A DNA stretch of 27,032 nt from Promethearchaeota archaeon (GCA_008080735.1 SHMW01000062.1:1-27032); one strand, 5' to 3'; numbered from the stretch's first letter, positions 6,547-25,964 are shown. Notes: generated by a model from the letters alone, not told the origin. Program-made: numbers and translations.

Positions 6547-6563
6547 GAGAATGTTAAAAAGAA

Positions 6564-6833
6564 ATGGAAAAAAAATATAAAGAATTTCCGGGAGTTCATT
6601 GGGTTCCAGCACCAGAAGATTTTATCTCAATTGAAAAAGACTTATGTAATGGATGTGCTGCGTGCTTAAAGGTGTGTTTGGCTAATTGTTTTGAACTTAA
6701 AAATGGAAAAGCGAAAATCAAGAGTTTAGAAAAATGTATGGAATGTAGTTCATGTTGGTATATATGTCCCACAGAAGCAATAAATTTTACTTATCCTGCG
6801 GGAGGTACAGGGTTTAAAACGAATTTCGGGTGA
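6564..6833 (+). CDS. FixX-like 2x[4Fe-4S] ferredoxin
   Basis: CNGCAACLKVC and CMECSSCWYICP; FixX-type tail YPAGGTGFKTNFG; starts 17 nt after the flavoprotein gene. Confidence 0.85.
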   Translation: MEKKYKEFPGVHWVPAPEDFISIEKDLCNGCAACLKVCLANCFELKNGKAKIKSLEKCMECSSCWYICPTEAINFTYPAGGTGFKTNFG

Positions 6834-9257: not shown

Positions 9258-9551
9258 TTATTCGGATTCGAACTTTTCTTCTTGTTTCTTTTGTTTTTCT
9301 GCCCCTTTCTCAAACATATCCAAGATAACTTCCAGATTCAAATTATTAAATGCTTCAAATCCAAGGTCAAAAAGATTCTTCACAGAATCTTGTGCCATAT
9401 CACTTAATCCCGTATCAATGTCCAATTGGCTCAAGAGATCCTTTACATCGTCTTTTGTGAAATCAAGAGGATTTTCGTTTCTAAATTGTTCTATCAGTTT
9501 CGCAATATCAATATTAGATTTGTTAAATCTGTATTCTGGCTCTTTATCCAT
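9258..9551 (-). CDS. Small acidic hypothetical protein
   Basis: 97 aa, D/E-rich and helical; starts 29 nt after the PlsC-like gene in the same orientation. Confidence 0.65.
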   Translation of the reverse strand: MDKEPEYRFNKSNIDIAKLIEQFRNENPLDFTKDDVKDLLSQLDIDTGLSDMAQDSVKNLFDLGFEAFNNLNLEVILDMFEKGAEKQKKQEEKFESE

Positions 9552-9580
9552 AATGTCTCACATTGATTTATTATACTTTG

Positions 9581-10255
9581 TTATTCTCTTAATTTTAAGG
9601 CATCGATTATTTTTATGATTCCTTCTGCGAGGTCATATCTCTGATCTCTATATTTATCTCTATTTAATTTCTTTTCGATGTTCAAAGGATTGCCGACTCG
9701 TACAACTAATCCATCTATATCAATCATATTAAAGATTTTAGTTTTTCTTGTTACCACCGCGACTGGAATGATGGGGGCATCTCCCGCTATGGCAAATTTA
9801 ATAATTGAAGCCATCGCTTTCACTTGGGTCTCCTCATCTAATTTAGATGGAGGTGTCATTGCTACAAGATCATTTTTTTGATTTAGATATTCAAATACAT
9901 TATCAATCGGTTCTTGATCGTCTTTGCTTTCGGTACTTCGAAACATTCCAAGTGTTTTTAATATTGGACCATAAACTTGGTGCCGAATCAATTTTGGGTC
10001 TAACATAAAGTGAATTTGTCTACCCGATAATTGAATGATTGCCATCATATCGCGAAGAACATTATCACTAATAGTAGTTAGAATAGCTTTGTCGTGTAAG
10101 GGAATTTTTTCCTTTCCCTCTATCTTTAATCCTGCAAAAGTTTCTAATGCAAGTCCTGTGATCCCATTGGTCAGCCCGTATAAGACCTTATTAAAATTTT
10201 CTCGACCACCAATTTTACTAAACATATCACTTTTTTTTTCTTCTACTTCTGTCAT
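9581..10255 (-). CDS. Lysophospholipid acyltransferase (PlsC)-fold protein with degenerate catalytic motifs
   Basis: LKIEGKEKIP, RQIHFM, APIIPVAV and VRVGNPL match the fold. NHxxxxD is replaced by SDNVLRD and FPEG by TPPS. Confidence 0.75.
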   Translation of the reverse strand: MTEVEEKKSDMFSKIGGRENFNKVLYGLTNGITGLALETFAGLKIEGKEKIPLHDKAILTTISDNVLRDMMAIIQLSGRQIHFMLDPKLIRHQVYGPILKTLGMFRSTESKDDQEPIDNVFEYLNQKNDLVAMTPPSKLDEETQVKAMASIIKFAIAGDAPIIPVAVVTRKTKIFNMIDIDGLVVRVGNPLNIEKKLNRDKYRDQRYDLAEGIIKIIDALKLRE

Positions 10256-10276
10256 TTTCGTTCCTCATAATTAACT

Positions 10277-10480
10277 TTACAATTTATAGATAAATTCATT
10301 TACCTCTTCCATACGTTTTTCATAATATTCTTTTAATTCCTTCTCCGAAACAATAGTTGGAATCACTTTCTCTGAAAACATATCAAATAAGGTTGATAAC
10401 TTCATTTGATGTTGGGCCGTTTCTAAAAACTCCTCTCCAATATTTCTTAACTGGTTTAAAAAGTCTTTTAATTCTTCCAT
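10277..10480 (-). CDS. Small hypothetical protein (67 aa)
   Basis: MEELKDFLNQLRNIGEEF...; likely start is ATG 10480; ends 21 nt before the PlsC-like gene. Confidence 0.6.
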   Translation of the reverse strand: MEELKDFLNQLRNIGEEFLETAQHQMKLSTLFDMFSEKVIPTIVSEKELKEYYEKRMEEVNEFIYKL

Positions 10481-10781
10481 TTTTTCAATGAATTGGTATT
10501 GAGTACAGAATGAATACTCATAATTACTTTTTTTATTAAAGATTCTAAGGTATTTAAATATTATAATACCATTCAAATTATTATGAATTTTTAAAATACG
10601 GATAAGGGTTATCTACTAAGAAGTGTGGATTCTTTTTGTATAACATAGTTTTAATATGTTAGTTTTAGTGATGTATAATATAGGAGCTAAATAATTCCTA
10701 ATTCATGTATCTCTGAATTGAATATGCATAAAAGGAATAAAATCTATTGAGTTAAATGCTAAAATTATTAAAATAATGAAG

Positions 10782-11810
10782 TTAAAATACTTCCCATTTT
10801 CCACATCTCGAACCCCATCTTGCGACAATTTCGTTGCCTTTTTCGGGCATCCGAACCTGTACAATTTCACAATTGTTTGGACAATCACCACAATGAAAAG
10901 TAGAGGTCTTAAATTCAACTTCGGTCACATCAAGACCTCTAAATGATGTTTCATGTCCATGATCCAAGTAATAATCTCGAACAAGTATAGCCATCCCTAA
11001 TGCGCCCATGAGTACATTATATTTTGGGACAATGACTTCATATCCTAAGTGTCGTTGAAAGGCTTCAACTATACCTTCATTAAAAGAAACCCCTCCTTGG
11101 AAAACGACGGGCTCTTCCAAATCTTTCCCTTTTGCAAGATTATTAAGGTAATTTCTCACTAATGAATCACAGAGTCCCGCAATAATATCTTCTTTAGAAT
11201 GTCCTGCATTTTGCTTATGAATCATATCGGACTCTGCGAATACCGTGCATCGCCCAGCGATAGAAACTGGACTGTTGGATTTAACCGCATAATTTCCAAA
11301 TTTTTCGATAGGAATATTTAGTCGGGCTGCTTGATGATCGAGAAAAGAACCAGTGCCCGCCGCACAAACAGAATTCATAGCAAAATCCACTATGATACCA
11401 TCCCGAAGAATAATGATCTTACTATCTTGTCCACCAATTTCCAGGATTGTTCGTACCTTTGGATACATAGATTGGGTGGCAACAGCATGAGCGATAATCT
11501 CTGTTTTTGCCAAATCGCCCCCAATTACCGCTTTAGTTAAATATCGTGCTGATCCTGTCGTTCCAACTGACCGAATTGTATAATTTTGCAATTTTTCTTC
11601 GTTTTCAATATGCTCTCTAAGTTTTGAGATCCCTACTTTCACAGAATCAATAGGAGATCCTTGATTTCGCAAAAATACATGACTTAAGACATTGCCATCA
11701 ACATCCATTAACACAAATTTGCATGATACGCTCCCAACATCTATTCCAAGGAATGCGTCCTCTTTGGTATTGTCGGATTGAATTTTATCTGATGCTTGAA
11801 CTTGTACCAT
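10782..11810 (-). CDS. CoA-substrate-specific enzyme activase (HgdC / BcrAD_BadFG ASKHA ATPase, [4Fe-4S])
   Basis: GIDVGS, EIGGQDSK, MNSVCAAGTGSFLD, RCTVFAES, FQGGV; extra C-terminal CxxCxxxC...C motif. Confidence 0.92.
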   Translation of the reverse strand: MVQVQASDKIQSDNTKEDAFLGIDVGSVSCKFVLMDVDGNVLSHVFLRNQGSPIDSVKVGISKLREHIENEEKLQNYTIRSVGTTGSARYLTKAVIGGDLAKTEIIAHAVATQSMYPKVRTILEIGGQDSKIIILRDGIIVDFAMNSVCAAGTGSFLDHQAARLNIPIEKFGNYAVKSNSPVSIAGRCTVFAESDMIHKQNAGHSKEDIIAGLCDSLVRNYLNNLAKGKDLEEPVVFQGGVSFNEGIVEAFQRHLGYEVIVPKYNVLMGALGMAILVRDYYLDHGHETSFRGLDVTEVEFKTSTFHCGDCPNNCEIVQVRMPEKGNEIVARWGSRCGKWEVF

Positions 11811-12071
11811 CTTTCTTACCTAATATTTAATGACTTGTATTTCATTTATCAATTCTTTTTGGATATATATCAAAATGTATCGATTTGTATACTTAAATAC
11901 TCTTTTTATTAAAAAACGCATCTTACCTTTTAAAAGACATCGTTCGTTTCAAACTATCAAAAATATTATTTTTTAAGAAATAATAAAAAGGAATTCTAAA
12001 TCACTTCGAAATTAAATCAATAAAATAAATTAATTGGGGATATGATGTATTTGAAGGGAGGGAGTTGCTTT

Positions 12072-13151
12072 TTAGCTAAGCATATCATCTACTATATCTT
12101 CTATTGGAGAAAACACTTTAAGATTTCCTCGCCAATCGTACAATATATGATCATATAATGTTTCTATTCGAGAGACTAATTTGCTGAGAAATAGTTTGTG
12201 TAATCGGAGGACTTCATCACTTATGATAATTCCATACAAATGATCACCTGAATATACAATAATGTTTTTATTATCTCTTTGAATGATAGAATAATCCATC
12301 CCAGAAATAATATTATCCAAAATCATTTCAATCCCCACAATTCCACCTGATTTCAAAGATTGCTTTGTATAACTTTCTTCGCTACTCATATTTTTGTTAT
12401 ATATTAGCAATCCCGATTTATGAGCGAGTAAAATCGACTCTATTTTCTCTTTCCAATGCAATTCAGAAAGAGATGATATTGAGGTGAAAAATAGAAAAAG
12501 GAGAACGATCCCGATGATTTGAAAAACATCCCCCATTAAACGAAAGCATGAATTCAATTGGGAAACAACTAATCTTGTCGTTAGCTGATAACCAATGGCA
12601 ACAAAAAGAATACCGATTGAGAATTCAATTAAATCGGTTTTAAACCTCCTATTCTCAATTTCTAAATAATAACTGCCCTTCAATCTTTTGATATAAAAAA
12701 CCATATAGATAAAGAATAGAACCCAAAATAATGTGGAAAAGGTTGCGGCTGATTGAAAATCGAGAAAATTGAGTATAATAAAAATTAGAAATAGGATAAT
12801 ATAAATCGAAGAAAAGAGAAACTTTTTGTAGAAGTTGGTTTTTCTCTCCGTAAGAAAAATAAACAAAAAGGCACCAAATATCCCTATGGAAAATGCGGTG
12901 GTTAATATAAGAGTTCCTTTCGAAGGTGAAGAAATGTAATGATCTGCAATTACTATAAAGAACCACATAAAACTATATCCTAAAAATAAAAACAAAAAAC
13001 CCCTATCACCATATTGGTCTAATTTTTTTTCCTTTTCTCTCAATTTTCTCCATAATAAAAAGGATAACTCTATGAGAAGAAAAAAAGTGATCCACTCTAC
13101 AACAATGATTACATCCTTAAGAGCTCCTTCAATTACAAATTGAATTATCAT
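12072..13151 (-). CDS. 7TM membrane protein with C-terminal longin-like domain
   Basis: About 7 hydrophobic segments, then about 130 aa with a beta-beta-alpha-beta-beta-beta-alpha-alpha pattern (ILLAHKSGLLIY, NIIVYSG, LYGIIIS, WRGNLKVF). Confidence 0.65.
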   Translation of the reverse strand: MIIQFVIEGALKDVIIVVEWITFFLLIELSFLLWRKLREKEKKLDQYGDRGFLFLFLGYSFMWFFIVIADHYISSPSKGTLILTTAFSIGIFGAFLFIFLTERKTNFYKKFLFSSIYIILFLIFIILNFLDFQSAATFSTLFWVLFFIYMVFYIKRLKGSYYLEIENRRFKTDLIEFSIGILFVAIGYQLTTRLVVSQLNSCFRLMGDVFQIIGIVLLFLFFTSISSLSELHWKEKIESILLAHKSGLLIYNKNMSSEESYTKQSLKSGGIVGIEMILDNIISGMDYSIIQRDNKNIIVYSGDHLYGIIISDEVLRLHKLFLSKLVSRIETLYDHILYDWRGNLKVFSPIEDIVDDMLS

Positions 13152-13168
13152 AATTTTTTTATATATGA

Positions 13169-14299
13169 TTAATTAGTCAGTTCTATAATTGAGTTATCAA
13201 AACTTTGTATTATCATTTTTTTCTCTTCAAATGTAAGATCTTCATTATTTAGGATTGGGTTAAATCTATTTTGGAATTTCTTTTTGATCTGATGTAAAAA
13301 ATAATCAATAGATTTCAGTTCTTTTGATACTATCAAGCAATATATCAAATCGGAAAACTGGTTTTCACCCCGAGAAATTATAAATTTGATCTTTCCATGT
13401 ATAATTTTCTTTACTTCCTCTTCTTTATCCATTAAATCAGATGTAATTTTTTCAATATTAATGATTCCCTTAGAAAAGAGGACTTCCTTTATCTCATCAT
13501 CAGATAAAGCTCCAACAGGTAAAATTCCCGGCCTGTCTATATTTTTAGTGAAATTATAAGAATATAAAATCCTTTCAGTATTTTTATTAATAACGAATAA
13601 ATTGAGGATATTTTCTTGCCAATAGAATTCTAATAAAACAGGGAAGTTATAGCTACCAAAATAGAGAAATAGGAGTCCAACTAATATAACGGGTATGCTT
13701 ATTATTTCAGCTAAAAATCTGCCAAAATCTCTATAAAATACTATGAACTCTTCAGCCCCAAGTATTACCGAACTAAGAACGATCATCTCTCCAATAAAAA
13801 TAAGAAATATTCTTTTTTTTAATCTCCCGCGAGCCATTTTTGCTACTTTGTAATGGAAATAAGTAAAAAAACTTCCCCCAAGAATGATGCTAATGGTGAT
13901 TAAAATATATTCAATTAAATCTAATTCCGTTATTAGTAAAAGTATAGAAATTATTAATGTAATAATTACTAAAATTCGAGGTATCCTTACATCTATTATT
14001 ATATCGAATATTTTTAATGATACAATAATTAAAAAAGAAAGAGCTGCAAGCACAATGAGAATATGACTTATTTCCCATAAAATCTTCGCCATTGTTTCAA
14101 TTTCAAGGATATATCCTCTTATCATTCGCAAAAAGACACCTGTTAACCCAAAGAATACTAAAAGCGCGTAAGCGAGGATGATTTTGTTGTATCCAATTGA
14201 TTTATCTTTTAATTTGTAATATTGATAAATAAGGTATGCTGTTATTTGATACCCAATGAAAAGTACGACAAATAGAAATGGGAAATAATACTCATTCAC
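13169..14299 (-). CDS. 7TM membrane protein with C-terminal longin-like domain
   Basis: 7 TM segments, then LFVINKNTERILYSYNF, IKFIISRG, LIYCLIVS, YFLHQIKKKFQNRF; ends 17 nt before its paralog. Confidence 0.65.
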   Translation of the reverse strand: MNEYYFPFLFVVLFIGYQITAYLIYQYYKLKDKSIGYNKIILAYALLVFFGLTGVFLRMIRGYILEIETMAKILWEISHILIVLAALSFLIIVSLKIFDIIIDVRIPRILVIITLIISILLLITELDLIEYILITISIILGGSFFTYFHYKVAKMARGRLKKRIFLIFIGEMIVLSSVILGAEEFIVFYRDFGRFLAEIISIPVILVGLLFLYFGSYNFPVLLEFYWQENILNLFVINKNTERILYSYNFTKNIDRPGILPVGALSDDEIKEVLFSKGIINIEKITSDLMDKEEEVKKIIHGKIKFIISRGENQFSDLIYCLIVSKELKSIDYFLHQIKKKFQNRFNPILNNEDLTFEEKKMIIQSFDNSIIELTN

Positions 14300-14488
14300 A
14301 GTTTTTACCAGCTATCAGAAAATAATTTTTTCTCTTAGTTATTTATATTTTATTATTCTCTTTCTTAAAATTATCTATTGCTACTTTTATTTATACCTAT
14401 TGAAATAAACTAAAAATCTTTATTAAATATAGAGAATATTTTTACATTATTCCAGCGGAACCGGAATTATCAAGTATGTGGTGTAAGA

Positions 14489-15022
14489 ATAACTATTGAT
14501 GCGACTTTTAAACTTTTAATAATAGGAGATAATGGAGTTGGAAAAACGGAGCTCCTCCGTAGGTTTATCGGGCATAATTTCGATGAAACCGTCCAACGTC
14601 TAATGGGAGTTAATCTAAGCATTCGGCATGTAACTTACGATGAGAAGCGAATCCTTCTTCAGATATGGGATCTCGCGGGAAGCAGTCAATTTGAATTTTT
14701 ACTGCCTACCTATGCTCGAGGGTGTTCGGGAGCGATTCTGATGTATGATATTACAAATGAAAATTCTGTTCTCAAATTAAAAGAATATTATCAACTCTTT
14801 GAAAACGCAGTGATAAATATCAGCCCTTTTCCTATTGTAGTAGTGGTTGGTTCGAAATTGGATTTGGAGGAAAAAAGGAAAGTATCGCAAAATAGGGCAA
14901 TTGAAGTTTTTAGTACAAGTAGAATTTTTGATTTTTTAGAATGCTCTGGCAAAACAGGTATAAATGTTGACAAAATTTTTAATATTCTTCTTAAGGGCAT
15001 AACTGACCGTCTAAAAATTTAG
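14489..15022 (+). CDS. Rab-like small GTPase with uncertain start (non-canonical start or frameshifted 5' end)
   Basis: In frame upstream of ATG 14603: DATFKLLIIGDNGVGKTELL. G3 WDLAGS, G4 GSKLD, G5 ECSGK. Confidence 0.85.
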   Translation: MTIDATFKLLIIGDNGVGKTELLRRFIGHNFDETVQRLMGVNLSIRHVTYDEKRILLQIWDLAGSSQFEFLLPTYARGCSGAILMYDITNENSVLKLKEYYQLFENAVINISPFPIVVVVGSKLDLEEKRKVSQNRAIEVFSTSRIFDFLECSGKTGINVDKIFNILLKGITDRLKI

Positions 15023-15060
15023 TAATGATATGATAAGATCTCTATTAGAATAAATTGAAG

Positions 15061-16260
15061 TTATTTAGCTTCGATTAAATTCACGCATTCATTATAGAAA
15101 TTATTTCCAAGCTGATCGTAGAGATTTTTTATGCCATGGAACTTGTCTTCTGCTTTCTTGTCTTGAATCCGCTTTTTACGTCTGGAATTCATTAAATCAA
15201 CAAATGCTTCCAGTCTAGTCCTGAAACCCTCTATCCCGCTCTGTTCATCAAATGAAAAGTAAATTATAGGGAGATCATACTCCTTTTTTAAATGATTCGT
15301 GATTAACGTACGTGCTGTGACCTCTGGCATGCACGTGAAGGGATATTGATGGACAAACCCATCCAAGCCCGCTCGTGCATTATGGATGTATTGTCCAATA
15401 ACCCATACGCATTCCCCGCCGATATCCATTGGGCAATACGGTTCTGCTAAATGCTCAAGCCATTTGCGATGAAAATTCACGTGTAATTTATGGGTGATCC
15501 AATCGTACAAGCTTAAGCTCTGATACAATTCCACTCCCATCTCGCCCAGTTTCCGCCGAATATCAAGATTCACGTAGGGTTCTAAGGTGATATATATTTC
15601 TCCCGCGATACCGACCTTTAATGGATTGCGAGACTTATCAATATCCAATTGATTGAAATCTTGTTTTATAACACTTTTGAAGTTTCGTAAACCTTTCAGA
15701 TTGTTGGTCTCATCAAGTTTATGAAGCAACTTTTCCACCAGATCAGTAGTATCCCCTTGATTCCGTTCATAGGCGCGGAAAATCCCCTCTGCTGTGTGGA
15801 TATCTTCGAGATACTTGCATTTTTTAAGGAAAAAGATAACAGCTTTCATAAATTTTGAGTATTGAAAGAGCCCGGTATTCGGAGTAACTTTAAAGAGTGC
15901 CTTTACCCAACCAAAATCCAGTAAATCGGCTTGATCAAGGGGTATTAATCGAAAATCTTTGTATCCCACATCTCTCAATATCCGTTCTTGAACACTGGCG
16001 TAAAATCCAAATCGGCATGGTCCACAATCAATCGCCATTATGATGGTGTCGGCGCCCTTATCTAAAGCACTCTTTAGCTCCCCAAGTGTTGGTTTGAAGG
16101 GAAAACATACAAATTCAGGGCTATGTTTTACTCCAAACTTAACAAGATTTCGATTTACAGGCTCAGGAAGGACTACTTCTACACCAAGCGTCTCAATCAG
16201 CGTTTTAAACGCCACCCAGCTTGTCCCCATGCGTGGAAACGTGACTTTAGGAGAACTCAT
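15061..16260 (-). CDS. 2-hydroxyacyl-CoA dehydratase-like Fe-S subunit (COG3581 type; PlsR-like)
   Basis: SPEFVCFPFK, CGPCRFGFY, VGIAGEIY, PFTCMPE, FDEQSG..G..TRLEAFVD. Confidence 0.85.
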   Translation of the reverse strand: MSSPKVTFPRMGTSWVAFKTLIETLGVEVVLPEPVNRNLVKFGVKHSPEFVCFPFKPTLGELKSALDKGADTIIMAIDCGPCRFGFYASVQERILRDVGYKDFRLIPLDQADLLDFGWVKALFKVTPNTGLFQYSKFMKAVIFFLKKCKYLEDIHTAEGIFRAYERNQGDTTDLVEKLLHKLDETNNLKGLRNFKSVIKQDFNQLDIDKSRNPLKVGIAGEIYITLEPYVNLDIRRKLGEMGVELYQSLSLYDWITHKLHVNFHRKWLEHLAEPYCPMDIGGECVWVIGQYIHNARAGLDGFVHQYPFTCMPEVTARTLITNHLKKEYDLPIIYFSFDEQSGIEGFRTRLEAFVDLMNSRRKKRIQDKKAEDKFHGIKNLYDQLGNNFYNECVNLIEAK

Positions 16261-16531
16261 TTTATTTTCTTGAAGTTGTCTAGATAATAATTATGGTATT
16301 AATTGGAAACTGAAATCTGCTTATCACAATTAATATGATTTATTTAAATAAATTTTTGAATAATAGCTTAAAAATGAAGTCAATTCGATAAAAATATTAC
16401 GAGTATTATTGTTTACAATCCTGATTTCGTCTTTTTTAGCATTTCAGAATCTTTTTTTAAATTTTTTATAGAATGTTCCTTTTTAAGTATTTATTGTAAT
16501 TAGATTTACTTTTTTATGACATTTTAAAAAA

Positions 16532-17500
16532 ATGATTCAAAATAGTCCTATCATTATAGAAATAAAGGGTTTAAACAAAGAGTTTGGGGAAATCCAAGCC
16601 TTATCCAATTTAAATCTAAAGGTCAAAAAAAATTCTATCTTCGGTTTTTTAGGTCCGAATGGTGCTGGGAAGACAACGACGATAAAATTGTTGTTGGGAT
16701 TGATTTCACCAACAAATGGCAATGCAACCATATTTAATTATGATATTATCCGCGACAGCATCAAAATTCGCTCACGAGTAGGCTATTTACCCCAGAATCC
16801 CTTTTTTTATGAGAATATGACAGCGCGAGAAATCCTTGAGTTTTCGATCAAATTTTATTTTTCAGGGTCTAAAGAAGCGATAGATTCAAGAATCGAAGAG
16901 GTTTTAGAACTTGTGGAGCTTTCTGAAAAAGCAGATCGTCCTATTAAGGGATATTCTGGTGGAGAGAGACAAAGACTCGGGATAGCTCAATCTGTTATCC
17001 ATAAACCCGATCTTCTTATCCTGGATGAGCCAACAGCTTCATTAGATCCTATTGGCCGTCATGCTGTACTAGAATTGATGTCGAAATTGAGAGAAGATAC
17101 CACTATTTTTTATTCCACACATATCTTAGATGATGTACAGAGAGTAAGTGATACTGTTGCGATTCTTAATAAGGGGAAACTCGTTGCTCAAGGACCAATA
17201 CAGGAATTATTAGCTGGAAGTGAAGGGGTTGTCTATGTAATTAAGACGAAAAATTCATCCGAAACTATTAGGGAAAAACTAATTGATCTACCATGGATTA
17301 TAAATTTACAAATATCTCAAGAAAGAGATCAATATGTTTGGCTGGTAAATGTAAATAGTGAGGAAAAAGCAGAAGAACATTTACTTCGTATGATATTATC
17401 GGATAAATCGATAAAGATTACAGAATATCGCAAACAAAAGTTTGAATTAGAAGATATATTTCTGAAAGTTATCAAGGAGGATGAAAATGAATTCGAATGA
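16532..17500 (+). CDS. ABC-2 type transporter ATP-binding protein
   Basis: Walker A GPNGAGKT, signature YSGGE, Walker B LILDEP, H-loop STH. Confidence 0.95.
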   Translation: MIQNSPIIIEIKGLNKEFGEIQALSNLNLKVKKNSIFGFLGPNGAGKTTTIKLLLGLISPTNGNATIFNYDIIRDSIKIRSRVGYLPQNPFFYENMTAREILEFSIKFYFSGSKEAIDSRIEEVLELVELSEKADRPIKGYSGGERQRLGIAQSVIHKPDLLILDEPTASLDPIGRHAVLELMSKLREDTTIFYSTHILDDVQRVSDTVAILNKGKLVAQGPIQELLAGSEGVVYVIKTKNSSETIREKLIDLPWIINLQISQERDQYVWLVNVNSEEKAEEHLLRMILSDKSIKITEYRKQKFELEDIFLKVIKEDENEFE

Positions 17501-18269
17501 ACAATTGATTGCGGTTAGTGAAAATGATTGGTGGAATAGATTTAAGAATATTCTTTTTGTAGAATTAGGGGATTTTTGGAAAAGTAAAGATTGGATCTGG
17601 ATGTCTTTATTATGGATTGGTATTGGTAATGGTATAAGTGCTCTCACCTATTTAGGCGGGGCTGAGGTGGAAATGGTGGCAATTTTCAATATTTTTTTTA
17701 TATTTATTGGCCTTTTCCCCCCAATTGCTACAATACTAGTTATGCAAGATTCTATCGTCGGGGAACAACGTTCCGGAGCAATTCTATGGCTTTTATCTAA
17801 ACCAATTTCTCGCCAATCCTTTATTTTCGCAAAATGGTTAGGAAATTCTATTAATCTACTTGTATGTATAACGATTATCCCTGGAACGATCGGGTATTTC
17901 GAATTTTCGGTGTTTTCAGGAGAGTGGTTATCACCAATCCTATATTTCACAGGGATCTCAATTTTAACGCTATATCATTTATTTTTCATCGGATTCACCC
18001 TATTATTAGGGACGATTATGGATACACCAGGTGGTGTGGCAGCCCCTCCGATGATCTTAAATTTCGCCCAACAATTTTTTCAAAGTATTCCTTATGCTAG
18101 TCATGTGTTACCCCTCACTCTATTCTTAAATCAACCAAGTAATTCAGTGATCTTAAGCATTATACTCGGCGAAATTCCCTCTACCATTATTCCAATCATT
18201 TCTACGGGGATATTTACGGTTTTCTTCCTATTTTTAGCAATTTGGAAATTCAACAAAGTGGATTTGTGA
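17481..18269 (+). CDS. ABC-2 type transporter permease
   Basis: About 6 TM segments; motif IVGEQRSGAILWLLSKPISR; overlaps the ATPase stop codon. Confidence 0.9.
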   Translation: MKMNSNEQLIAVSENDWWNRFKNILFVELGDFWKSKDWIWMSLLWIGIGNGISALTYLGGAEVEMVAIFNIFFIFIGLFPPIATILVMQDSIVGEQRSGAILWLLSKPISRQSFIFAKWLGNSINLLVCITIIPGTIGYFEFSVFSGEWLSPILYFTGISILTLYHLFFIGFTLLLGTIMDTPGGVAAPPMILNFAQQFFQSIPYASHVLPLTLFLNQPSNSVILSIILGEIPSTIIPIISTGIFTVFFLFLAIWKFNKVDL

Positions 18270-18383
18270 TAAATTACAATTTAACTAATTTTTTTATTTT
18301 TAAATTGAAAGGAATTATCTCGAAATCTATTAATATTAGAACCCTAATCTATTTTTAAAAGAAAAGAAAAAAACGGTATTGAA

Positions 18384-18764
18384 TTAATTGAATGGGACTA
18401 AATAAATTTCCTCGTTCCTTTTTTCTGCTTTTACCAATTCAAACCGTCGAAGGATTGCGAAGATATTTTCAATTTCTTTTTCATTCATCTCAAAGGTATC
18501 AGCAAGTTCATTTTTCTTTGCCCCCTCATGAGATTTAATATAGTTATATATCTCCTTTTGCTCATTGGTAAGGCTTTCCTCACCTGATTTTCCCGTCATT
18601 TCTTCTATAATCTTTGCAGACCTTACCCCCATAGGATCACACGCTTTAAGTTCCATTTTCACATCAATATAACAATCTTCGCATAAAGTTTTTCCCGCAT
18701 GGGTAAAACTATCATCTCTTAGAATTTCCTCTCCACAAACATCACATTTTATAAGTTCACTCAT
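18384..18764 (-). CDS. Zn-finger plus winged-HTH hypothetical protein
   Basis: CDVC...CEDC, then LTNEQKEIYNYIK...KNELADTF...FAILRRFELV. Confidence 0.7.
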   Translation of the reverse strand: MSELIKCDVCGEEILRDDSFTHAGKTLCEDCYIDVKMELKACDPMGVRSAKIIEEMTGKSGEESLTNEQKEIYNYIKSHEGAKKNELADTFEMNEKEIENIFAILRRFELVKAEKRNEEIYLVPFN

Positions 18765-18950
18765 GCTTTCACTTCACTATCTTAATCATATTTTACCTTT
18801 ATACAATGAAATATTGGATTAATTAAAATTATCAAGATTTTAGAATATAGATTATAAATATCTATGTCAATTTTCTCAAAGCAGAAATTATAAATATATC
18901 CTCTTATCAAACTATAAACAGCAATTATTGAATTATGAGGGATAATTAAA

Positions 18951-19838
18951 GTGGTACATATTAAAGAAGAAGGTAAATTTAACGAGAATGCGTATATATT
19001 GGATGCGGAGTTTATGAAAACTGAAAAGACCTGTGCTATATATATTATTGAAAATGAAGGAAAGCGATTGATGTTAGATACAGGAGAATCTTTAAGCGCA
19101 CGACGACTTATGAAAAAAATTAAGAATTTTAATCTCTACCCCATCCACCAAATTCTGTTAACTCACGCCCATTGGGATCATATCCAAGCATTACCTAAAT
19201 TGAAGCGCTTGATGAAGGATACAGATCTCGAAGTCTATGCACATCAAAATGCGATTGATATATTAAAAAACCCAGAACGCATGAACGAGTTTTTTGGGTA
19301 CCAAGTAGACCCGATTGAAAATGTTGTGCCGCTAAAACAAAATGATGTTCTCGATTTAGCCGGATTAAAATTAAAGATTCATGAATTTTTTGGGCACACG
19401 CAAGATTCAATCGGGATTCAGGATTTAAAAAACCGGATAATATTCGTGGGTGATGCCATTATTGATAAAATCGATAAAAATACATTTGTCCCGGTGCTTT
19501 TTGGACCTGATTTTGATGAAAAGAGTCTGTTAAAGACATATAAGAAATTACGTAATATGAGTGATGAGTTAGATGCTATTGCATTAGCTCACTATGGAAT
19601 TTGGAAGGAGGAGGATTTCAATAAGATTATTAATGAAATGGAAGATCTCTACTTTGAAGCGAAAAACCTTCTAATCGAGGCATACAACGACAATCTCTCA
19701 ATTAAAGAGATAACAAGGAAATATCGTGATGAGCTTATTCCTAATTCAGAAATATTTTCGGAAGCAAATATTATGGGATTACAATGGAATATCGAACAAA
19801 ACATTGATACACTAAAAGCAGCTGGATTTATAAACTAG
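18951..19838 (+). CDS. Metallo-beta-lactamase-fold hydrolase
   Basis: LDTG, THAHWDH, GHT, VGDA, LAHYG. Confidence 0.9.
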   Translation: MVHIKEEGKFNENAYILDAEFMKTEKTCAIYIIENEGKRLMLDTGESLSARRLMKKIKNFNLYPIHQILLTHAHWDHIQALPKLKRLMKDTDLEVYAHQNAIDILKNPERMNEFFGYQVDPIENVVPLKQNDVLDLAGLKLKIHEFFGHTQDSIGIQDLKNRIIFVGDAIIDKIDKNTFVPVLFGPDFDEKSLLKTYKKLRNMSDELDAIALAHYGIWKEEDFNKIINEMEDLYFEAKNLLIEAYNDNLSIKEITRKYRDELIPNSEIFSEANIMGLQWNIEQNIDTLKAAGFIN

Positions 19839-19857
19839 AATTGAATATTGAAATGAT

Positions 19858-22107
19858 CTAAAATGGATTTTGGGGAATTAGGAGAATAAATTTTGAGCCT
19901 TGTGAGTAATCTCCTTTAACTCTATCTTCTACACTGATTTTCCCACGAAAGCTCTCAACTATTTTTCCCACTAAGGTTAAACCTAACCCTGTCCCTCCTA
20001 TTTTTCCATCCTCATCATATCCTCTTCTAAATATCTTTTCTTTGATCTCATCTTTCACACCCCTTCCATTATCGAGAAAAATTACCTCCACATAGTGTGT
20101 GTCAATTTTTTCTATTTTAGATACCTTGATTTGGATATCAATAAAATCGTTTTTATTATGGATAATAGCATTTTCTAGGATATTTTGATACACATCATAT
20201 AGATATTCGTTTGTGTAAGCAAATATTTCATTCTTATAGGGATTGAGTTTAATATTAATTTCATGAGATGAAAAGCGTCTTTTAATTTCTTCTATAACAA
20301 TTCGTAATGGTGTGAGAATATTTTTTTTGAGATTTTCGAAGGTCTGTTTTTCTAATTTAGATAATTTCCTAACATTAGATACGAGATTTGAGCCTCGAGA
20401 AATTTGATCTTCAATCAATTTAAAATTTTGGAGTATATCATGAGAAACCTTAGAATTGCGAAGAAAAATTTCATTTAATTCATTTGCAGAAAGAATATTT
20501 TGGAAGATATTATTGATATCATGTGCGAATAAATCTTTATAAAACTCCGCTCGCTGATATGCATAACGATATTTCACTTCTGATTCTTTTAAATTAAATT
20601 GTGCATTCACTCGTTTAGTAATATCCTTTAGATGTCCGATCATATTAATTGTATTCCCTATATTATCTTTCAGAGGGAAGATGCTAAGATCTAACCACCC
20701 AACTTGGTTATTCTTTTTTATCAGAGGAACTATATTTCCTCCACCTTTACCCATATCCTTTTTTATAATAATTGGACACCAAGGACATGGACTATCTCTG
20801 TTTTGAATAACATTATAGCATTTATTTCCTTGAATATTTTCTGTAATTTCAAATAATTCTTTAAATCCTGCATTAACCCGAATAAGGTTATAATTAGGGT
20901 CAAGAATATATATGCAGTCTCGAATAGCATTAAAAACACTTTGAAGAAATTTCTCATTTAATCTTAGTTTTTCTTGAATCAGTTTCTGTTCCGTGACATC
21001 TCTGACAATTGCTTGAATGAGCATTTTATCATTAAATTCTATCTTACTTAGGCTAATTTCCGCATCAAACTTAGTTCCATCCTTTTTTGTATGGAGCCAA
21101 TAAAATCTCTGTTTTTCGCCATTTAAAGCATTTTTAAGATAATTAAGTGCCTTTTCTTTTGAGTTTTGACCATCAAGTTGAATTTGCGGAGAAAATTTCC
21201 ATGGTGGATATCCAATTATCTCATTTTTGTTTGAGCAACCATAGATTTCGACCGCTCGTTCATTACATTCCAAGAACATATTTAGATTCATAATAATTAT
21301 TCCGTCATTAGCACCCTCAAACAACATCCTATATTTAATTTCGGATTCTTTTAGTGAATCTTCAATCTGTTTTCTTTCCGTAATATCAGAGGTAAGGACA
21401 TAAACATCCCTTTTATTATCTATAGTGCGACTATAAGAATACTTATTTTGTATATACCTTTTTGTTCCATCCTTTTGTCGAATCCAAAATCTCAGTGATT
21501 CTATTTCTCTTGTTTTTGCATCCACTTCTTTCTGTATTTTTCGTAATCGCTCTTTTTCCTCTTTAACCGCGAGTTCTATGCCTGTTAGATTTTCTAATTC
21601 ATTTTTTGGATAGCCAAAAATTTCGCATACCCTATTATTGAGGTATACTATCTTCCCGTCTTCTATTATAGTTAATCCTTCATTGATATTTTCTGCCATA
21701 CGTTTAAATTTCTTATCACTTTCACCGATTATATCTAATTCCCTTTTTTCTGGGGAAATTATTTTTCCAATGCAAATTACATTATTTGGATCCTTCTTTC
21801 TTCCTCTGAAGATATACATATCGATGAAGATTTTGGTGTTGTCTCTGCTCCGAATAGGAAGAGAGAAGAATCTTTCTTTCGCTCTTATGATCTCCTCCAA
21901 TATCTGATTTGCTCTTTCTTTACTTTTTATATAAACAAATTCTGAGAATTTTTTTCCAATCAAATCTTCTTCCGTATAGCCTAGCTGAGTTTTTATTATA
22001 GAATTTGTGAAAATAATATATCCCGTCTCATCAAGTATAAAGACCAATTCGCTAATAGAATTTAAAATCTCTATAAGATGATTCTCTTGATTGGAGATTA
22101 TTGGCAT
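19858..22107 (-). CDS. Multi-PAS (4 domains) soluble histidine kinase
   Basis: Repeated PAS/PAC ends (SDITERK, RDVTEQK, KDITKR); H-box DLFAHDINNIF; NILENAI, DNGRG, GTGLGL. Confidence 0.93.
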   Translation of the reverse strand: MPIISNQENHLIEILNSISELVFILDETGYIIFTNSIIKTQLGYTEEDLIGKKFSEFVYIKSKERANQILEEIIRAKERFFSLPIRSRDNTKIFIDMYIFRGRKKDPNNVICIGKIISPEKRELDIIGESDKKFKRMAENINEGLTIIEDGKIVYLNNRVCEIFGYPKNELENLTGIELAVKEEKERLRKIQKEVDAKTREIESLRFWIRQKDGTKRYIQNKYSYSRTIDNKRDVYVLTSDITERKQIEDSLKESEIKYRMLFEGANDGIIIMNLNMFLECNERAVEIYGCSNKNEIIGYPPWKFSPQIQLDGQNSKEKALNYLKNALNGEKQRFYWLHTKKDGTKFDAEISLSKIEFNDKMLIQAIVRDVTEQKLIQEKLRLNEKFLQSVFNAIRDCIYILDPNYNLIRVNAGFKELFEITENIQGNKCYNVIQNRDSPCPWCPIIIKKDMGKGGGNIVPLIKKNNQVGWLDLSIFPLKDNIGNTINMIGHLKDITKRVNAQFNLKESEVKYRYAYQRAEFYKDLFAHDINNIFQNILSANELNEIFLRNSKVSHDILQNFKLIEDQISRGSNLVSNVRKLSKLEKQTFENLKKNILTPLRIVIEEIKRRFSSHEINIKLNPYKNEIFAYTNEYLYDVYQNILENAIIHNKNDFIDIQIKVSKIEKIDTHYVEVIFLDNGRGVKDEIKEKIFRRGYDEDGKIGGTGLGLTLVGKIVESFRGKISVEDRVKGDYSQGSKFILLIPQNPF

Positions 22108-22350
22108 TTGATCCCACTATTTTTTTTGATCTAGAGATAATCCAATATAGGAATGGAAAGTTCTCTAATCATTGTCTAAAAAGATTAATTAAATGATAAA
22201 GAAATGAATTTTTATATTTTTCGATAATAATTTAGACAATCTTGTATATAACCTAACCACAAAAATAATTTTTGTAATTTCTATAAAATTAATCCAGAAA
22301 ATAAAAATGAATATAGATTATATTGATAAATATAAAGTGTAGTAAGAAAT

Positions 22351-23430
22351 TTAAAAAATATTAGCCTCTTGGATCTTTTCTTCTTGCTGAATTTCAGCTT
22401 CAGCCTTTAATTTCTTCTTTTTACGTTTAATCATTTCGACAAAAGATTCTATACGTGTAAGCATTCCTGCTTCTCCGCTATGTTCATCCATAATTAATGC
22501 GAGATAGGGAATTCCAACTACTTTCATATCTCTCATGATCAATTCTGAGATTATGCTATCGGGTCCACACGCAAAGCTTATCAAAAATATGATCCCATCA
22601 ATTTCCTCTCGTCCTTTAGTCATAAAATGTCTACAGACTTGCATTATCTCTTCTTCGTGTCGCCAGTAATTTTTTAATTTTTTATTGACCACAACAGGGA
22701 TATTATAAATTGATTCGGGCAGATTTTCTTTGGTGAGAACTTCTACATCTCGTTCCCTCAATTTTTTCTGGAAATCTAAATTAATATAGGTGTCAAATAA
22801 GTTATATTCATGCCCAATCAATAATAACCGAAGTTCTCCATCAATTTGACGTTTAGGTAATTTAAATGGCTTTCCCATGCGAACTAATTTTAAGGCATGA
22901 TTAACGGGCGCTCCTTTTCTGAGAAACTTTTTATATTTATGAAAATATTGTCGGGCGTGTTCATAGGCCTCCAAGGATTTTGAACGACCTACACCTAATT
23001 GTTTTCCGAGGTCTATTGCAGCTATATTCACAGGAAATTCTTTTACATTCACTTCAAAATGCAATATTTTGGGGACATCTGGTAAGATTTTTACAACATC
23101 CGGAAGAGAGAGGAATTTTGGACAAAAAAACGCTTCATTTACTTCAGAGACATATCGTGGCACAAAAATAAAGTCCAGATCTGGATAGTGTTCGATCAAA
23201 TGCATGACATGGCCATAATATATCTTCATTGGAATACATAATTCTCCAAAACCATGCTGTACTCCAACGGTGACAATTTTTTTATTAGTGGGGGGACTTA
23301 AAACGATTTCTGCCCCGAGTTCTTCCAATATTTTTTTCCAGAAGGGAAAATATCTATAATAATGGAGCGCGCGTGGTATCCCAACCTTTGGTTTCTTTTT
23401 TTGACTGCTCTTCCCAGCTTCCGTATTCAT
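22351..23430 (-). CDS. DUF2229 (COG3580) acyl-CoA dehydratase/activase-related Fe-S subunit
   Basis: KVGIPRAL, ELCIPMKIYYGHV, FFCPKF, SFACGPDS, DEHSGEAGMLTRIESF. Confidence 0.88.
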   Translation of the reverse strand: MNTEAGKSSQKKKPKVGIPRALHYYRYFPFWKKILEELGAEIVLSPPTNKKIVTVGVQHGFGELCIPMKIYYGHVMHLIEHYPDLDFIFVPRYVSEVNEAFFCPKFLSLPDVVKILPDVPKILHFEVNVKEFPVNIAAIDLGKQLGVGRSKSLEAYEHARQYFHKYKKFLRKGAPVNHALKLVRMGKPFKLPKRQIDGELRLLLIGHEYNLFDTYINLDFQKKLRERDVEVLTKENLPESIYNIPVVVNKKLKNYWRHEEEIMQVCRHFMTKGREEIDGIIFLISFACGPDSIISELIMRDMKVVGIPYLALIMDEHSGEAGMLTRIESFVEMIKRKKKKLKAEAEIQQEEKIQEANIF

Positions 23431-23447
23431 AATATTTGCCTCAATAA

Positions 23448-25160
23448 TTATGCATTAGGTTTATCATAGACCAATAGATCTTTTATTCTAGCCATTAGAT
23501 TATTGGTAAGACGTTTTAATTCATCATAGTCTGGCATGGGTTTATCAAAGTACTTGGAATGTTCCATAAAGGGTTCGCCTGCTTTAAACGTCTGACCGTG
23601 ACCGAAATATAAGGATTTTGCGTGTTTAGGATAGGTATTTTCAGTGCCGGTGATGCCAACTGGAATTATGGGTACCTTTGCTTCGATCGCTAATCTCATA
23701 GCACCAGTATGACCTTCAAGGACCTCGCCACCACCACTCGAAGTTGTCCCTTCGGGATATATCATTACTATTTTATCTTCTTCTAATAATCCTTTAGCGT
23801 AATTATAGCAAGGAATGTCGCTTTCTCCTCTTTTTAAAGGAAAGGCATGATGAGTACGTACCCATGCGTTCACGATGGGTATTTGGAATAATGATTGTTT
23901 AGACATCTGCCAAAGCATACGCTTTTTTGAAATTTCAAGCGCATAAGCATTCATAATAACATCCCATTCAGAGTTATGGTTTGAACAAATAATTGCTCCG
24001 CCCTCACTTGGAACGTTCTCTTCATATCCCATGACTTTAATCGGCGCAAAATTATCGACTATAAACTTAACAGCCGGATAAGTAAGTCCGTGTTGTATTA
24101 ATTTTTGAAATTCATATCGGAGTCCAAACTCATCTAAAGTTTTTAGAAAGGTTATCCAGGCATCATCAATTGATTGTAGGAAAAAGTTTTGAAGGTATTT
24201 TAGCCAATATTTGAAACCTTTTTCTTTTTCCGTTTTTTTCGTATCTTCTGGTGAGCCAATAGATAATTCTTCTGACGGTGTTTTTTGTTTGATCCTTCTT
24301 TTCGAGAAATTTACGTTTCCCTCTTTTAAATCAATTACCTTTTGTTGAAGCTCATCTGATAATTTTCTTGCTATTTCTGGAGTTAAGCGTCCTTTATATT
24401 CATCATAATAGATAGGTTTTCCAACTCTACAGCGAACTTGTACTGGTTTACCAATAAGTTTTCCTTTTGGCAAAGCATCTGCGGATCCCAAGATCGCAAC
24501 AGGAACTATTGGTACATTATTTTCAACTGCTAAACGTACTGCACCCGTTTTAAATTCACCTATGCTTCCATCCATACTTCTGGTGGCTTCAGGAAAAATT
24601 CCCACCCATTCTCCCATTTCAAGCTTTTTTTTAGCATATTCCCATGCTTTTCTCACATCTTCCTTATTTCCTCGTTCTCCGAGAGAAAAAGCACTGAGAT
24701 TTTTAAATAGAGTGCGAACGATCGGAGTTTTAAAATTCTCTGGTTTGCTCATATAATTGATTTTATGGTTACATGTTCCACCGACAAAGAAAGGGTCAAG
24801 ATGGCTCTCATGATTACTTACCACAATCCCCCCACCATATTCGGGGAAAAGCTCTCCATCTTCATAAACTGCTTCATATCGCCAAATTGCTCTCATCGCC
24901 CATTTGACATAGATATTCGCAGCCCACCATTGTAAGCGCTGTTCTTTATCTGTCAATTCTAGCATATCTATGATTTTATGATAAAAATCATTGATTGGAT
25001 CGATTGGGTTATATTTTAGGATTTTATAAAGGGTATTTTGATGGGGCTTTTTCCATTTTAACTCTTCTGCTTTTGAGCCCTCTTCAGCTTCCCATTCACC
25101 AATAGTTTTTTGCTTGATTTCATCTACTTCTTTTTCTAACTCGCTTTTACTCGTTACCAT
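23448..25160 (-). CDS. plsC: Tandem two-domain glycerol-phosphate/lysophospholipid acyltransferase (PlsC family)
   Basis: Domain 1 has SNHESHLD and FPEATRS; domain 2 has SNHNSEWD and YPEGTTS. Confidence 0.9.
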   Translation of the reverse strand: MVTSKSELEKEVDEIKQKTIGEWEAEEGSKAEELKWKKPHQNTLYKILKYNPIDPINDFYHKIIDMLELTDKEQRLQWWAANIYVKWAMRAIWRYEAVYEDGELFPEYGGGIVVSNHESHLDPFFVGGTCNHKINYMSKPENFKTPIVRTLFKNLSAFSLGERGNKEDVRKAWEYAKKKLEMGEWVGIFPEATRSMDGSIGEFKTGAVRLAVENNVPIVPVAILGSADALPKGKLIGKPVQVRCRVGKPIYYDEYKGRLTPEIARKLSDELQQKVIDLKEGNVNFSKRRIKQKTPSEELSIGSPEDTKKTEKEKGFKYWLKYLQNFFLQSIDDAWITFLKTLDEFGLRYEFQKLIQHGLTYPAVKFIVDNFAPIKVMGYEENVPSEGGAIICSNHNSEWDVIMNAYALEISKKRMLWQMSKQSLFQIPIVNAWVRTHHAFPLKRGESDIPCYNYAKGLLEEDKIVMIYPEGTTSSGGGEVLEGHTGAMRLAIEAKVPIIPVGITGTENTYPKHAKSLYFGHGQTFKAGEPFMEHSKYFDKPMPDYDELKRLTNNLMARIKDLLVYDKPNA

Positions 25161-25175
25161 ATTAATATCAACTCC

Positions 25176-25964
25176 TTATGTTTTTACTTCTAAGGATTCT
25201 TGAGCCTTAGATTCTGTATCTTTTTCATATTTTATTCCAAAAATATCCATTAATTCATATAAAGATTCAACAATCACATCAGGTCGATAATCAATTAAGA
25301 GTTCTTTATTGCTAATTCCACTGGCTATTGCGATTGACCAAATACCGGCTTCTTGTGCAACTTCTACGTCTGTAGGCATATCTCCTATCATGACGAATTC
25401 ATTTGAATTGAGCGGAGAATATTGGCTTAAAACTGGTTGTAAAGCAACGGGATTGGGTTTTAAAGCAGGTAAGTCATCAGCACCATAGATTGCTTCAAAA
25501 TATTCACCTAATTTTTTCTCTTCTCTGTGATGTTTCAAATTTTTCGATTGATTATGCGACACCACATAAAGATCATATTTATTATTGAGCTCTTTAAGTA
25601 AATCTTTCGCCCCAGAAAGTAAAGGTGCATCTTTTTCATATTCAAGATACCGAGTAAAAATTTTTGTCGCAATCCGCAATTTTTTAAAATATGTAAGATG
25701 ACTCAATGTGGGAATGAATTTAAAGATATCATGAGACTCTAAGATTATCTTTGGAAGGGGATAACCTTGAACGGACTCCAATACTGATCCAATCTCTTTC
25801 TTCGTTTGAGAGAAATCCACATCTAATTTGTACTCTTCAAAGGTTTCCTTGAGCGCGCGTTCTAGCGGCTCGCTAATATCAAGTAAAGTTCCGTCAAAAT
25901 CGAATATCAATGCGCGTAAACTATTCGACTTGAGCCAGTTTTGGAACTTATTGTCTTCACTCAT
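25176..25964 (-). CDS. HAD-superfamily phosphatase
   Basis: Motif I FDFDGTL, motif II VVSH, motif III KP, motif IV GDMPTD; ends 15 nt before plsC, which has an upstream GGAG. Confidence 0.9.
   Translation of the reverse strand: MSEDNKFQNWLKSNSLRALIFDFDGTLLDISEPLERALKETFEEYKLDVDFSQTKKEIGSVLESVQGYPLPKIILESHDIFKFIPTLSHLTYFKKLRIATKIFTRYLEYEKDAPLLSGAKDLLKELNNKYDLYVVSHNQSKNLKHHREEKKLGEYFEAIYGADDLPALKPNPVALQPVLSQYSPLNSNEFVMIGDMPTDVEVAQEAGIWSIAIASGISNKELLIDYRPDVIVESLYELMDIFGIKYEKDTESKAQESLEVKT

Follow-up and report, generated by a model that had tools for sequence, protein, structure and literature searches.

Gene content of the locus

The DNA analysed here (the window) is a stretch of 27,032 nucleotides (nt) from a Promethearchaeota archaeon (GCA_008080735.1, SHMW01000062.1:1-27032), i.e., contig C62 of a genome of 4.1 Mb and 93% completeness. 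Between positions 9,258 and 25,964 of this window, which has a G+C content of ~30-35%, lie six genes that encode a HAD-type phosphatase, two proteins of the PlsC acyltransferase fold (PlsC2 and PlsCs), and the three parts of a reductase system (Red1, Red2 and an activase). In relatives these genes form a single operon, and the reductase parts appear to be a split version of the fused PlsA/Ger-type enzymes that turn lipid esters into ethers. All six were located on the minus strand by open reading frame (ORF) calling together with Pfam and NCBIfam profile searches:

25176-25964, minus strand: HAD-IA family phosphatase of 262 amino acids (aa) (PF13419 HAD_2, 9e-27), the first gene of the HAD-PlsC2-Red1 run
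23448-25160, minus strand: PlsC2, double PlsC/AGPAT-type acyltransferase of 570 aa (two PF01553 domains)
22351-23430, minus strand: Red1, DUF2229 protein with an HGD-D C-terminus, 359 aa (PF09989, 160 bits, full profile)
15061-16260, minus strand: Red2, second reductase subunit of 399 aa (partial PF09989 plus PF06050)
10782-11810, minus strand: activase, BcrAD_BadFG ATPase of 342 aa (PF01869, 164 bits; TIGR00241, 196 bits)
9581-10255, minus strand: PlsCs, PlsC-fold protein of 224 aa (PF01553, 22.5 bits versus a cut-off of 23)

The first three genes are separated by only 15 nt (25160 to 25176) and 17 nt (23430 to 23448), as an initial annotation made from the window's sequence had reported. That annotation proposed that the archaeon acylates glycerol phosphate with PlsC, removes the phosphate with the HAD enzyme, and reduces the resulting ester to a vinyl or alkyl ether. 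It also took the contig to be archaeal. Since the homologues of Red1 (~70% identity) and PlsC2 (55-89%) all stem from Lokiarchaeota/Promethearchaeota-type metagenome-assembled genomes (MAGs), the contig is indeed Asgard (Lokiarchaeia); some of the MAGs bearing Red1 and PlsC2 are labelled Thor-, Hermod-, Odin- or Heimdallarchaeota. A search of sequencing runs found the window DNA in marine sediment metagenomes, i.e., in two DNA runs of one study, with no RNA run listed.

A putative reductase split over three proteins

Ger and PlsA perform ester-to-ether conversion (PMC13159169; PMC9702350). Ger has the architecture BBDHDDH, with two activase domains, DUF2229, and mixed DUF2229/HGD-D pieces (Sahonero-Canavesi et al.; PMC13159169), and every confirmed alkyl-ether producer is reported to keep the BBD core, made up of two activase domains and DUF2229 (PMC13159169). 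The Ger study uses DUF2229 as a Ger domain, and it is this family (PF09989) that Red1 matches over profile positions 1-217 of 218. The HGD-D family (PF06050) is matched by Red1 at profile positions 282-342 only. Red1 is ~70% identical across Lokiarchaeia, and Red1 and Red2 are paralogues of each other (24% identity).

The AlphaFold2 model of Red1 (predicted local distance difference test, pLDDT, of 92) finds its best structural matches in HadBC/HadI, HgdAB/HgdC, class I benzoyl-coenzyme A (CoA) reductases and DCCP/DCCP-R, with HadB/C, DCCP and BzdNO as best folds at a template modelling (TM) score of ~0.5. These systems have a homologous activase, and ATP-coupled electron injection into a two-subunit Fe-S core is their common feature. 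In sequence, however, the likeness to HadBC and HgdAB is confined to ~60 C-terminal residues (62 in the PDB match of Red1 to HadB), without a full-length HGD-D. In HadBC, three cysteines hold each [4Fe-4S] cluster. Red1 has three cysteines (C65, C103 and C288) that are invariant in 80 family members, fused forms included, while C52, C82 and C310 of Red2 are invariant in 53 sequences and kept in Enterococcus-type fused proteins; by analogy, this pattern fits and suggests one [4Fe-4S] cluster per subunit.

The activase is most similar in the PDB to HadI, HgdC and MbdQ (1e-34 to 1e-37) and is predicted to be an ATP-dependent electron-injecting ATPase of the HgdC/HadI type. The extra cysteine cluster that the initial annotation had ascribed to it is present as a C-terminal CxxCxxxC...C extension (C307, C310, C314 and C336). 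This stretch is lacking in HadI/HgdC-type chains, since these are only ~270 residues long. It is common to the activases of bacterial split systems and to the second activase domain of Enterococcus-type fused proteins, and it also aligns with a full-length Lokiarchaeial (Loki) protein and with BBD forms.

Hidden Markov models (HMMs) of split Red1 and Red2 map in order on a 1414-aa Enterococcus-type protein (at 661-990 and 1019-1388, respectively), and Red2 likewise comes immediately behind Red1 on the fused proteins P0318, P0299 and L015, the full-length Loki protein among them. Red1 is thus the counterpart of the first reductase module of PlsA/Ger, and Red2 that of PlsR or the C-terminal module. 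Natural Red1-Red2 fusions of 690-770 aa exist as well, and all six cysteines are conserved in both the split and the ~1400-aa fused forms. Because HMM order, the six cysteines and the activase tail all match the fused proteins, Red1, Red2 and the activase appear to be a module-for-module split version of PlsA/Ger-type enzymes, and sequence comparison places the system in the DUF2229 (PlsA/PlsR/Ger) family rather than among the amino-acid-fermentation dehydratases.

Like Ger (Thermotoga maritima Tmari_0479; Desulfatibacillum alkenivorans SHJ90043; Sahonero-Canavesi et al. 2022), the system combines an activase, DUF2229 and a second D/H module, both belong to the anaerobic, ATP-driven Fe-S type, and three plus three cysteines are kept in the fused members examined. 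The two differ in packaging, Ger being one ~1400-aa polypeptide with two activase domains, whereas the window encodes three proteins with a single, free-standing activase domain, unlike the BBD core. The window's own genome yielded no BBD protein, a PF09989 search returning two matches on C62 and two on another contig (C20) only. PlsA/PlsR of Clostridium perfringens is a two-gene split form, and a single-gene form occurs in Enterococcus and Lactococcus; the window's arrangement is split further, into three genes, and the cysteine tail of its activase is common to the Enterococcus-type protein.

A two-domain PlsC acyltransferase

The product of the gene upstream of Red1, PlsC2, scores 166 bits against TIGR00530, which is over the cut-off, and its N-terminal domain aligns with T. 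maritima PlsC (PDB 5KYM) at 3e-18. Its two sets of HX4D and motif III sequences, NHESHLD/FPEATRS and NHNSEWD/YPEGTTS, are invariant in 7 orthologues. PlsC2 thus reads as a two-domain acyltransferase with both catalytic sites intact, i.e., as a tandem fusion of two catalytic domains when compared with 5KYM. These domains are the only PF01553 matches in the 93%-complete genome, and the fused double-PlsC form was found solely in Asgard-labelled records. No PlsC-DUF2229 fusion occurred among 49 longer homologues, which is weak evidence.

Conservation of the operon in relatives

Synteny was examined in 151 sampled genomes of the phylum, with 25 genomes in the window's own family (f1) and further ones in a second family (f2). 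Both Red1 and PlsC2 were found in 24 of the 25 f1 genomes, and wherever both are present (24 of 24 f1 genomes), PlsC2 immediately precedes Red1 in the direction of their common strand. In one of these (G104), HAD, PlsC2, Red1, Red2, the activase and PlsCs are contiguous on one strand within 7 kb, and the four genes from PlsC2 to the activase are contiguous in G104, G129 and G040. Because PlsC2 and Red1 are invariably adjacent and all six genes are contiguous in G104, the grouping is far beyond chance. Moreover, most genomes of the order have the activase gene next to Red2, and PlsCs directly follows the activase in most f1 genomes.

In the three f2 loci examined (L011, L012 and L014), the PlsC domains are encoded by separate genes in the order PlsC-PlsC-Red1-Red2-activase. 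This order occurs in Ca. Harpocratesius repetitus and in the cultured Ca. Lokiarchaeum ossiferum (NEF87_002901 onward), both identified by look-ups of exact sequences, and in G089. Promethearchaeum syntrophicum MK-D1 has PlsC-Red1-Red2-activase (QEE15036-15039), with one PlsC gene. The distance between Red1 and Red2 is 6-400 nt in G104, G129, G040 and the f2 genomes, where the genes that separate them in the window are absent.

Since relatives hold the genes contiguously, the window is a rearranged copy of a Lokiarchaeial operon that has been broken by insertions, as in another relative (G019), and the ancestral order is (HAD)-PlsC/PlsC-Red1-Red2-activase-(PlsC-like). The scattered genes of the window thus are one unit in relatives, and Red1, Red2 and the activase form one system, as the initial annotation had supposed of its three Fe-S proteins. 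Its key argument, the direct linkage of the reductase to plsC, also proved to be conserved across the order; for Ger, unlike for this system, linkage to plsC has not been reported.

Two further features of these loci were noted. In MK-D1, a gene for a PadR-family transcriptional regulator (L132:8126-8752) lies directly upstream of PlsC-Red1-Red2-activase and is a possible regulator of the operon. In ~10 relatives (e.g., G071:C116, G125:C359, G065:C127, G121:C61, G077:C51 and G144:C8) the contig stops 300-900 bp past Red1, and fragments of the Red2 N-terminus lie there or are duplicated elsewhere (G065:C165:3-176, G121:C61:304-480 and G077:C51:301-876). The Red1/Red2 junction is a site of recurrent assembly breaks or duplication.

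Paralogous systems in the same genome and in relatives

A second, compact operon of paralogous genes lies on contig C20 of the same genome (L005:7449-12269, plus strand) and encodes an 803-aa VAO/FAD_binding_4-Red1 fusion, followed by an activase (344 aa) and a Red2 (450 aa), which are 40%, 53% and 42% identical to the Red1, activase and Red2 of the window, respectively. The FAD domain of the fusion belongs to the VAO family, with cytokinin dehydrogenases as nearest PDB entries. It was considered as an alkyl-dihydroxyacetone-phosphate synthase (AGPS), a candidate that was rejected since AGPS matched at only 1.5e-5 and the cytokinin dehydrogenases were nearer. A feature search put it nearest to an automatically named 'Delta(24)-sterol reductase'-like cluster, a lead only, and, speculatively, the domain might saturate a vinyl ether as a C=C reductase. 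Selenocysteine was likewise considered for the FAD-Red1 paralogues of G113 and G135 and rejected, the tblastn frames being uninterrupted and the TGA flags arising from matches that overran the gene end.

Relatives additionally carry a PlsA/PlsR-like pair, which consists of a BBD protein of 865-982 aa and a Red2-like protein of 462-469 aa without a Pfam match (L006:13073-17070, L009:13538-17907 and L126:11975-16335). The pair lies 2-3 kb from, or directly after, PlsC2-Red1, so that an architecture parallel to that of PlsA/PlsR adjoins the split system. In G113, PlsC2 is followed by all three systems within 20 kb and on a single strand, with the BBD and PlsR-like pair standing between the split Red1 and Red2, and this clustering strengthens the tie of the split system to PlsA-like chemistry.

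Genes inserted in and flanking the window's operon

The unrelated genes that interrupt the operon in the window, the first four of which were assigned with Pfam, are as follows:

19858-22107, minus strand: PAS histidine kinase, between Red1 and Red2
18951-19838, plus strand: metallo-beta-lactamase, between Red1 and Red2
18384-18764, minus strand: Zn-ribbon/winged helix-turn-helix protein, between Red1 and Red2
16532-18269, plus strand: ABC transporter pair, between Red1 and Red2
14414-15022, plus strand: Ras-like GTPase, between Red2 and the activase
12072-13151 and 13169-14299, minus strand: two multi-pass membrane proteins of 359 and 376 aa, between Red2 and the activase

The two membrane proteins, each with a soluble C-terminal part, gave no Pfam or NCBIfam match. 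The P-loop of the Ras-like GTPase (GDNGVGKT) precedes the first in-frame ATG, GTG or TTG (the listed ORF start is at 14603), and the gene at 14414-15022 either has a non-canonical start or is damaged. Elsewhere in the window (4888-6833, plus strand), the gene for a FAD-dependent oxidoreductase of 552 aa stands before that for a 2x[4Fe-4S] ferredoxin of 89 aa, and the two proteins could be a low-potential electron donor pair. A scan for sigma-70 promoters gave matches at background level and is not meaningful for an archaeon.

Putative function of the operon and alternatives

Taken together, the genes would allow the following pathway. PlsC2 would use acyl-CoA to esterify one or both positions of a glycerol phosphate backbone, after which a ferredoxin-reduced activase dimer would hydrolyze ATP to push a low-potential electron into a Red1/Red2 heterodimer. 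The latter would reduce the acyl ester of the glycerolipid to a 1-alk-1'-enyl (plasmalogen-type) or 1-alkyl ether, like PlsA/PlsR and Ger do. The HAD enzyme may take off the phosphate, and PlsCs may bind or present the lipid. Acyl-CoA is the likely acyl donor, because the genome holds ~20 AMP-binding (acyl-CoA-synthetase-like) genes and neither acyl carrier protein nor PlsY was found in it. Given the distant homology and the gene linkage, we rate the chance that the operon has this ester-to-ether function as about even.

A number of observations, which are set out in the following paragraphs, weigh against this function. The first concerns the position of Red1 in its family. In a tree of 80 Red1 modules (quick LG+G4 inference with Red2 as outgroup, and support given as Shimodaira-Hasegawa-like approximate likelihood ratios, SH-aLRT, only), the activase-fused forms of Enterococcus, Desulfonema and Chloroflexota, together with the Loki full-length and BBD proteins, made up one clade (SH-aLRT 99). 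T. maritima and C. perfringens sequences were not part of this tree, so that the comparison runs via the Desulfonema, Chloroflexota and Enterococcus members. The split Red1 proteins of Asgard archaea, whether PlsC-linked or FAD-fused, formed another clade (99) that lies among bacterial stand-alone forms and has an Omnitrophota protein as its sister. Identity of Red1 to the fused forms is only 24-30% (24-28% for the Enterococcus-type proteins, in the different clade). Because Red1 falls outside the activase-fused clade, the system is a family member and not an orthologue of the characterised PlsA/Ger enzymes. The likeness to PlsA/PlsR and Ger that the initial annotation had proposed hence holds at the level of the DUF2229 family, as opposed to the fermentation dehydratases, and does not extend to orthology.

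The nearest relatives of Red1 (33-40% identity) are found in bacterial Red1-Red2-activase operons, including those of Omnitrophota, which are likewise split into three genes and keep the invariant residues. An exhaustive search gave 427 representatives at E <= 1e-30, mostly stand-alone proteins of ~330 aa or Red1-Red2 fusions of ~730 aa, while a genome scan with a narrow alignment returned mostly Bacillota. The 80 bacterial loci examined (L018-L097), mainly from anaerobic Bacillota (Pelotomaculum, Moorella, Desulfotomaculum, Syntrophomonas and Carboxydothermus), hold a tight Red1-Red2-activase operon with, unlike the Lokiarchaeial operon, a PlsC-like neighbour in just one of the 80. Their recurrent neighbours are housekeeping genes (MinC, NUDIX, DUF3786, glycogen synthase and SelA/SelB) that give no functional clue, and no reported function of the bacterial split operons was found. 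SelA and SelB adjoin the operon in ~10 of the 80 loci (e.g., L044 and L073). Since other Asgard families also have Red1-Red2-activase without a PlsC neighbour, the acyltransferase linkage is specific to this Lokiarchaeial order. With lipid genes lacking around the bacterial operons, a lipid substrate is only putative for the split subfamily as a whole.

These relationships lend themselves to a different reading, in which the split enzyme, as an ATP-driven radical reductase or dehydratase, would use a substrate at the acyl-CoA level or another small substrate, e.g., to make an unusual acyl chain that PlsC2 then transfers; the PlsC link would then reflect a shared pathway rather than ester-to-ether chemistry. 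Besides the housekeeping neighbours of the closest relatives, the PlsC-free operons of other Asgard families and the position of Red1 in the tree, it is favoured by the fold and C-terminal motif that the system has in common with 2-hydroxyacyl-CoA dehydratases, benzoyl-CoA reductases and DCCP, and by one relative in which the PlsC2-Red1 pair is flanked by genes for a thiolase and a 3-hydroxyacyl-CoA dehydrogenase. On the other hand, the full DUF2229, the six cysteines and the activase tail tie the system specifically to the PlsA/Ger family, with the HadBC likeness in sequence limited to those ~60 residues, and a PlsA/PlsR-like pair is embedded in the G113 cluster. Furthermore, unlike for 2-hydroxyacyl-CoA dehydratases, no CoA-transferase gene was present in the operon of any relative examined, and the conserved operon holds no CoA-ligase gene either. 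On balance we consider a small-substrate enzyme unlikely, though the most credible of the alternatives to the ester-to-ether function.

Two further points concern the outer genes of the operon. The AlphaFold2 model of PlsCs (pLDDT 84) has T. maritima PlsC (5KYM) as its best fold match, at a TM score of 0.57-0.62. Unlike in 5KYM, however, the HX4D site reads S-D-N-x-x-R-D; of 27 orthologues, 26 have the catalytic histidine replaced, and the motif III of the set is a degenerate TPESKLD. Because of this loss, PlsCs is probably non-catalytic and not an acyltransferase, so that for the initial annotation's PlsC-fold gene at 9581-10255 the fold is confirmed and acyltransferase activity is improbable. 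As for the HAD protein, all NCBIfam equivalogs score far under their cut-offs. Its orthologue is found directly upstream of PlsC2 in G104 and G083 and ~4 kb upstream of it in a Hermod-labelled MAG. In L006 it was not seen upstream, and in the f2 loci it was not seen immediately before the PlsC genes. The phosphatase that the initial annotation had placed in the pathway is therefore present, yet less consistently linked, and its role is a guess.

PlsY and the C-terminal domain of glycerol-3-phosphate (G3P) dehydrogenase (GpsA) were not found in the 93%-complete genome, and the backbone and first acylation step are thus not fixed, with G3P, glycerol-1-phosphate (G1P) and an isoprenoid monoether as candidates. 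In MK-D1, ether cleavage of the lipids released phytane and biphytanes only, and its authors described genes for ester-type lipids as lacking (PMC7015854). That MK-D1 carries the operon, yet has isoprenoid-only lipids, speaks against abundant n-alkyl ethers under those conditions; according to a later paper, the ether-cleavage method could have missed ester lipids.

These observations bear on the possibility of hybrid lipids, in which PlsC2 would acylate G1P or the isoprenoid monoether geranylgeranylglyceryl phosphate (GGGP), as a lysophosphatidic acid-like acceptor, and the reductase would turn the product into an n-alkyl or alkenyl ether, to give a mixed isoprenoid/alkyl diether on an archaeal backbone. 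GGGP synthase is present (192 bits), while no PlsY or GpsA C-domain turned up, bacterial PlsC takes both glycerol phosphate stereoisomers (PMC13400652), and the single operon PlsC of MK-D1 fits one acylation of a lyso-type acceptor. The acceptor is nonetheless putative, the two catalytic PlsC domains of f1 and f2 fit two acylations of glycerol phosphate better, and hybrid lipids have not been reported from MK-D1. They are accordingly a rather improbable outcome.

Finally, one relative (G083, 100% complete; L127, G083:C6:66000-75000) keeps HAD-PlsC2-PlsCs without Red1, Red2 or a matching activase. Here the reductase has been lost naturally, and the acyltransferases must therefore serve a role in its absence. 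In place of the reductase genes stands a deaminase-toxin-like ORF. Salvage or remodelling of bacterial lipids and fatty acids from syntrophic partners, or the making of neutral storage or signalling acyl-lipids, with the reductase as an accessory and not for the bulk membrane, would agree with this loss, with the isoprenoid-only core lipids reported for MK-D1 and with the many acyl-CoA-synthetase-like genes, but it is the least probable of the alternatives, as the ~70% identity of Red1 across the family and its strict linkage to PlsC2 suggest a core function.

The ester-to-ether function hence stays our preferred reading. Three outcomes that would have spoken against it were looked for, and in each case the reverse was found: the proteins do not group with the dehydratases, the plsC linkage is conserved, and the contig is archaeal. 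Parts of it have been described before. Ger homologues were reported in 2022 from Lokiarchaeota (including P. syntrophicum) and Heimdallarchaeota, under a loose criterion of E <= 1e-50 and coverage >= 30% (Sahonero-Canavesi 2022), and plsC and plsY are known in Asgard genomes (Coleman 2019, as cited in EMBO Rep 2026). Asgard Ger homologues and plsC are already published as separate hits, and the PlsC-linked split operon, of which no description was found in the literature searched, is what is added here.

Implications for the lipid divide

How eukaryotes with fatty-acyl lipids arose from an archaeal host with isoprenoid ethers is an open problem. The only PlsC-type acyltransferases found in this genome sit in one conserved operon with what appears to be a complete split PlsA/Ger-like enzyme, and the bacterial loci point to a large, uncharacterised family of split DUF2229 systems beyond the Asgard archaea. 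As a more far-reaching and improbable scenario, the operon of Lokiarchaeia, MK-D1 and L. ossiferum included, might build chimeric lipids, in which an ester placed by PlsC, with acyl chains taken from acyl-CoA, on an archaeal backbone or isoprenoid monoether would become an n-alkyl or alkenyl ether, with the FAD-fused paralogue of C20 saturating the vinyl ether. If true, a living intermediate between the two sides of the lipid divide would exist among the archaea that are closest to eukaryotes. Because both cultured Lokiarchaeia have the operon, the idea is open to a direct test with four to six genes in two organisms.

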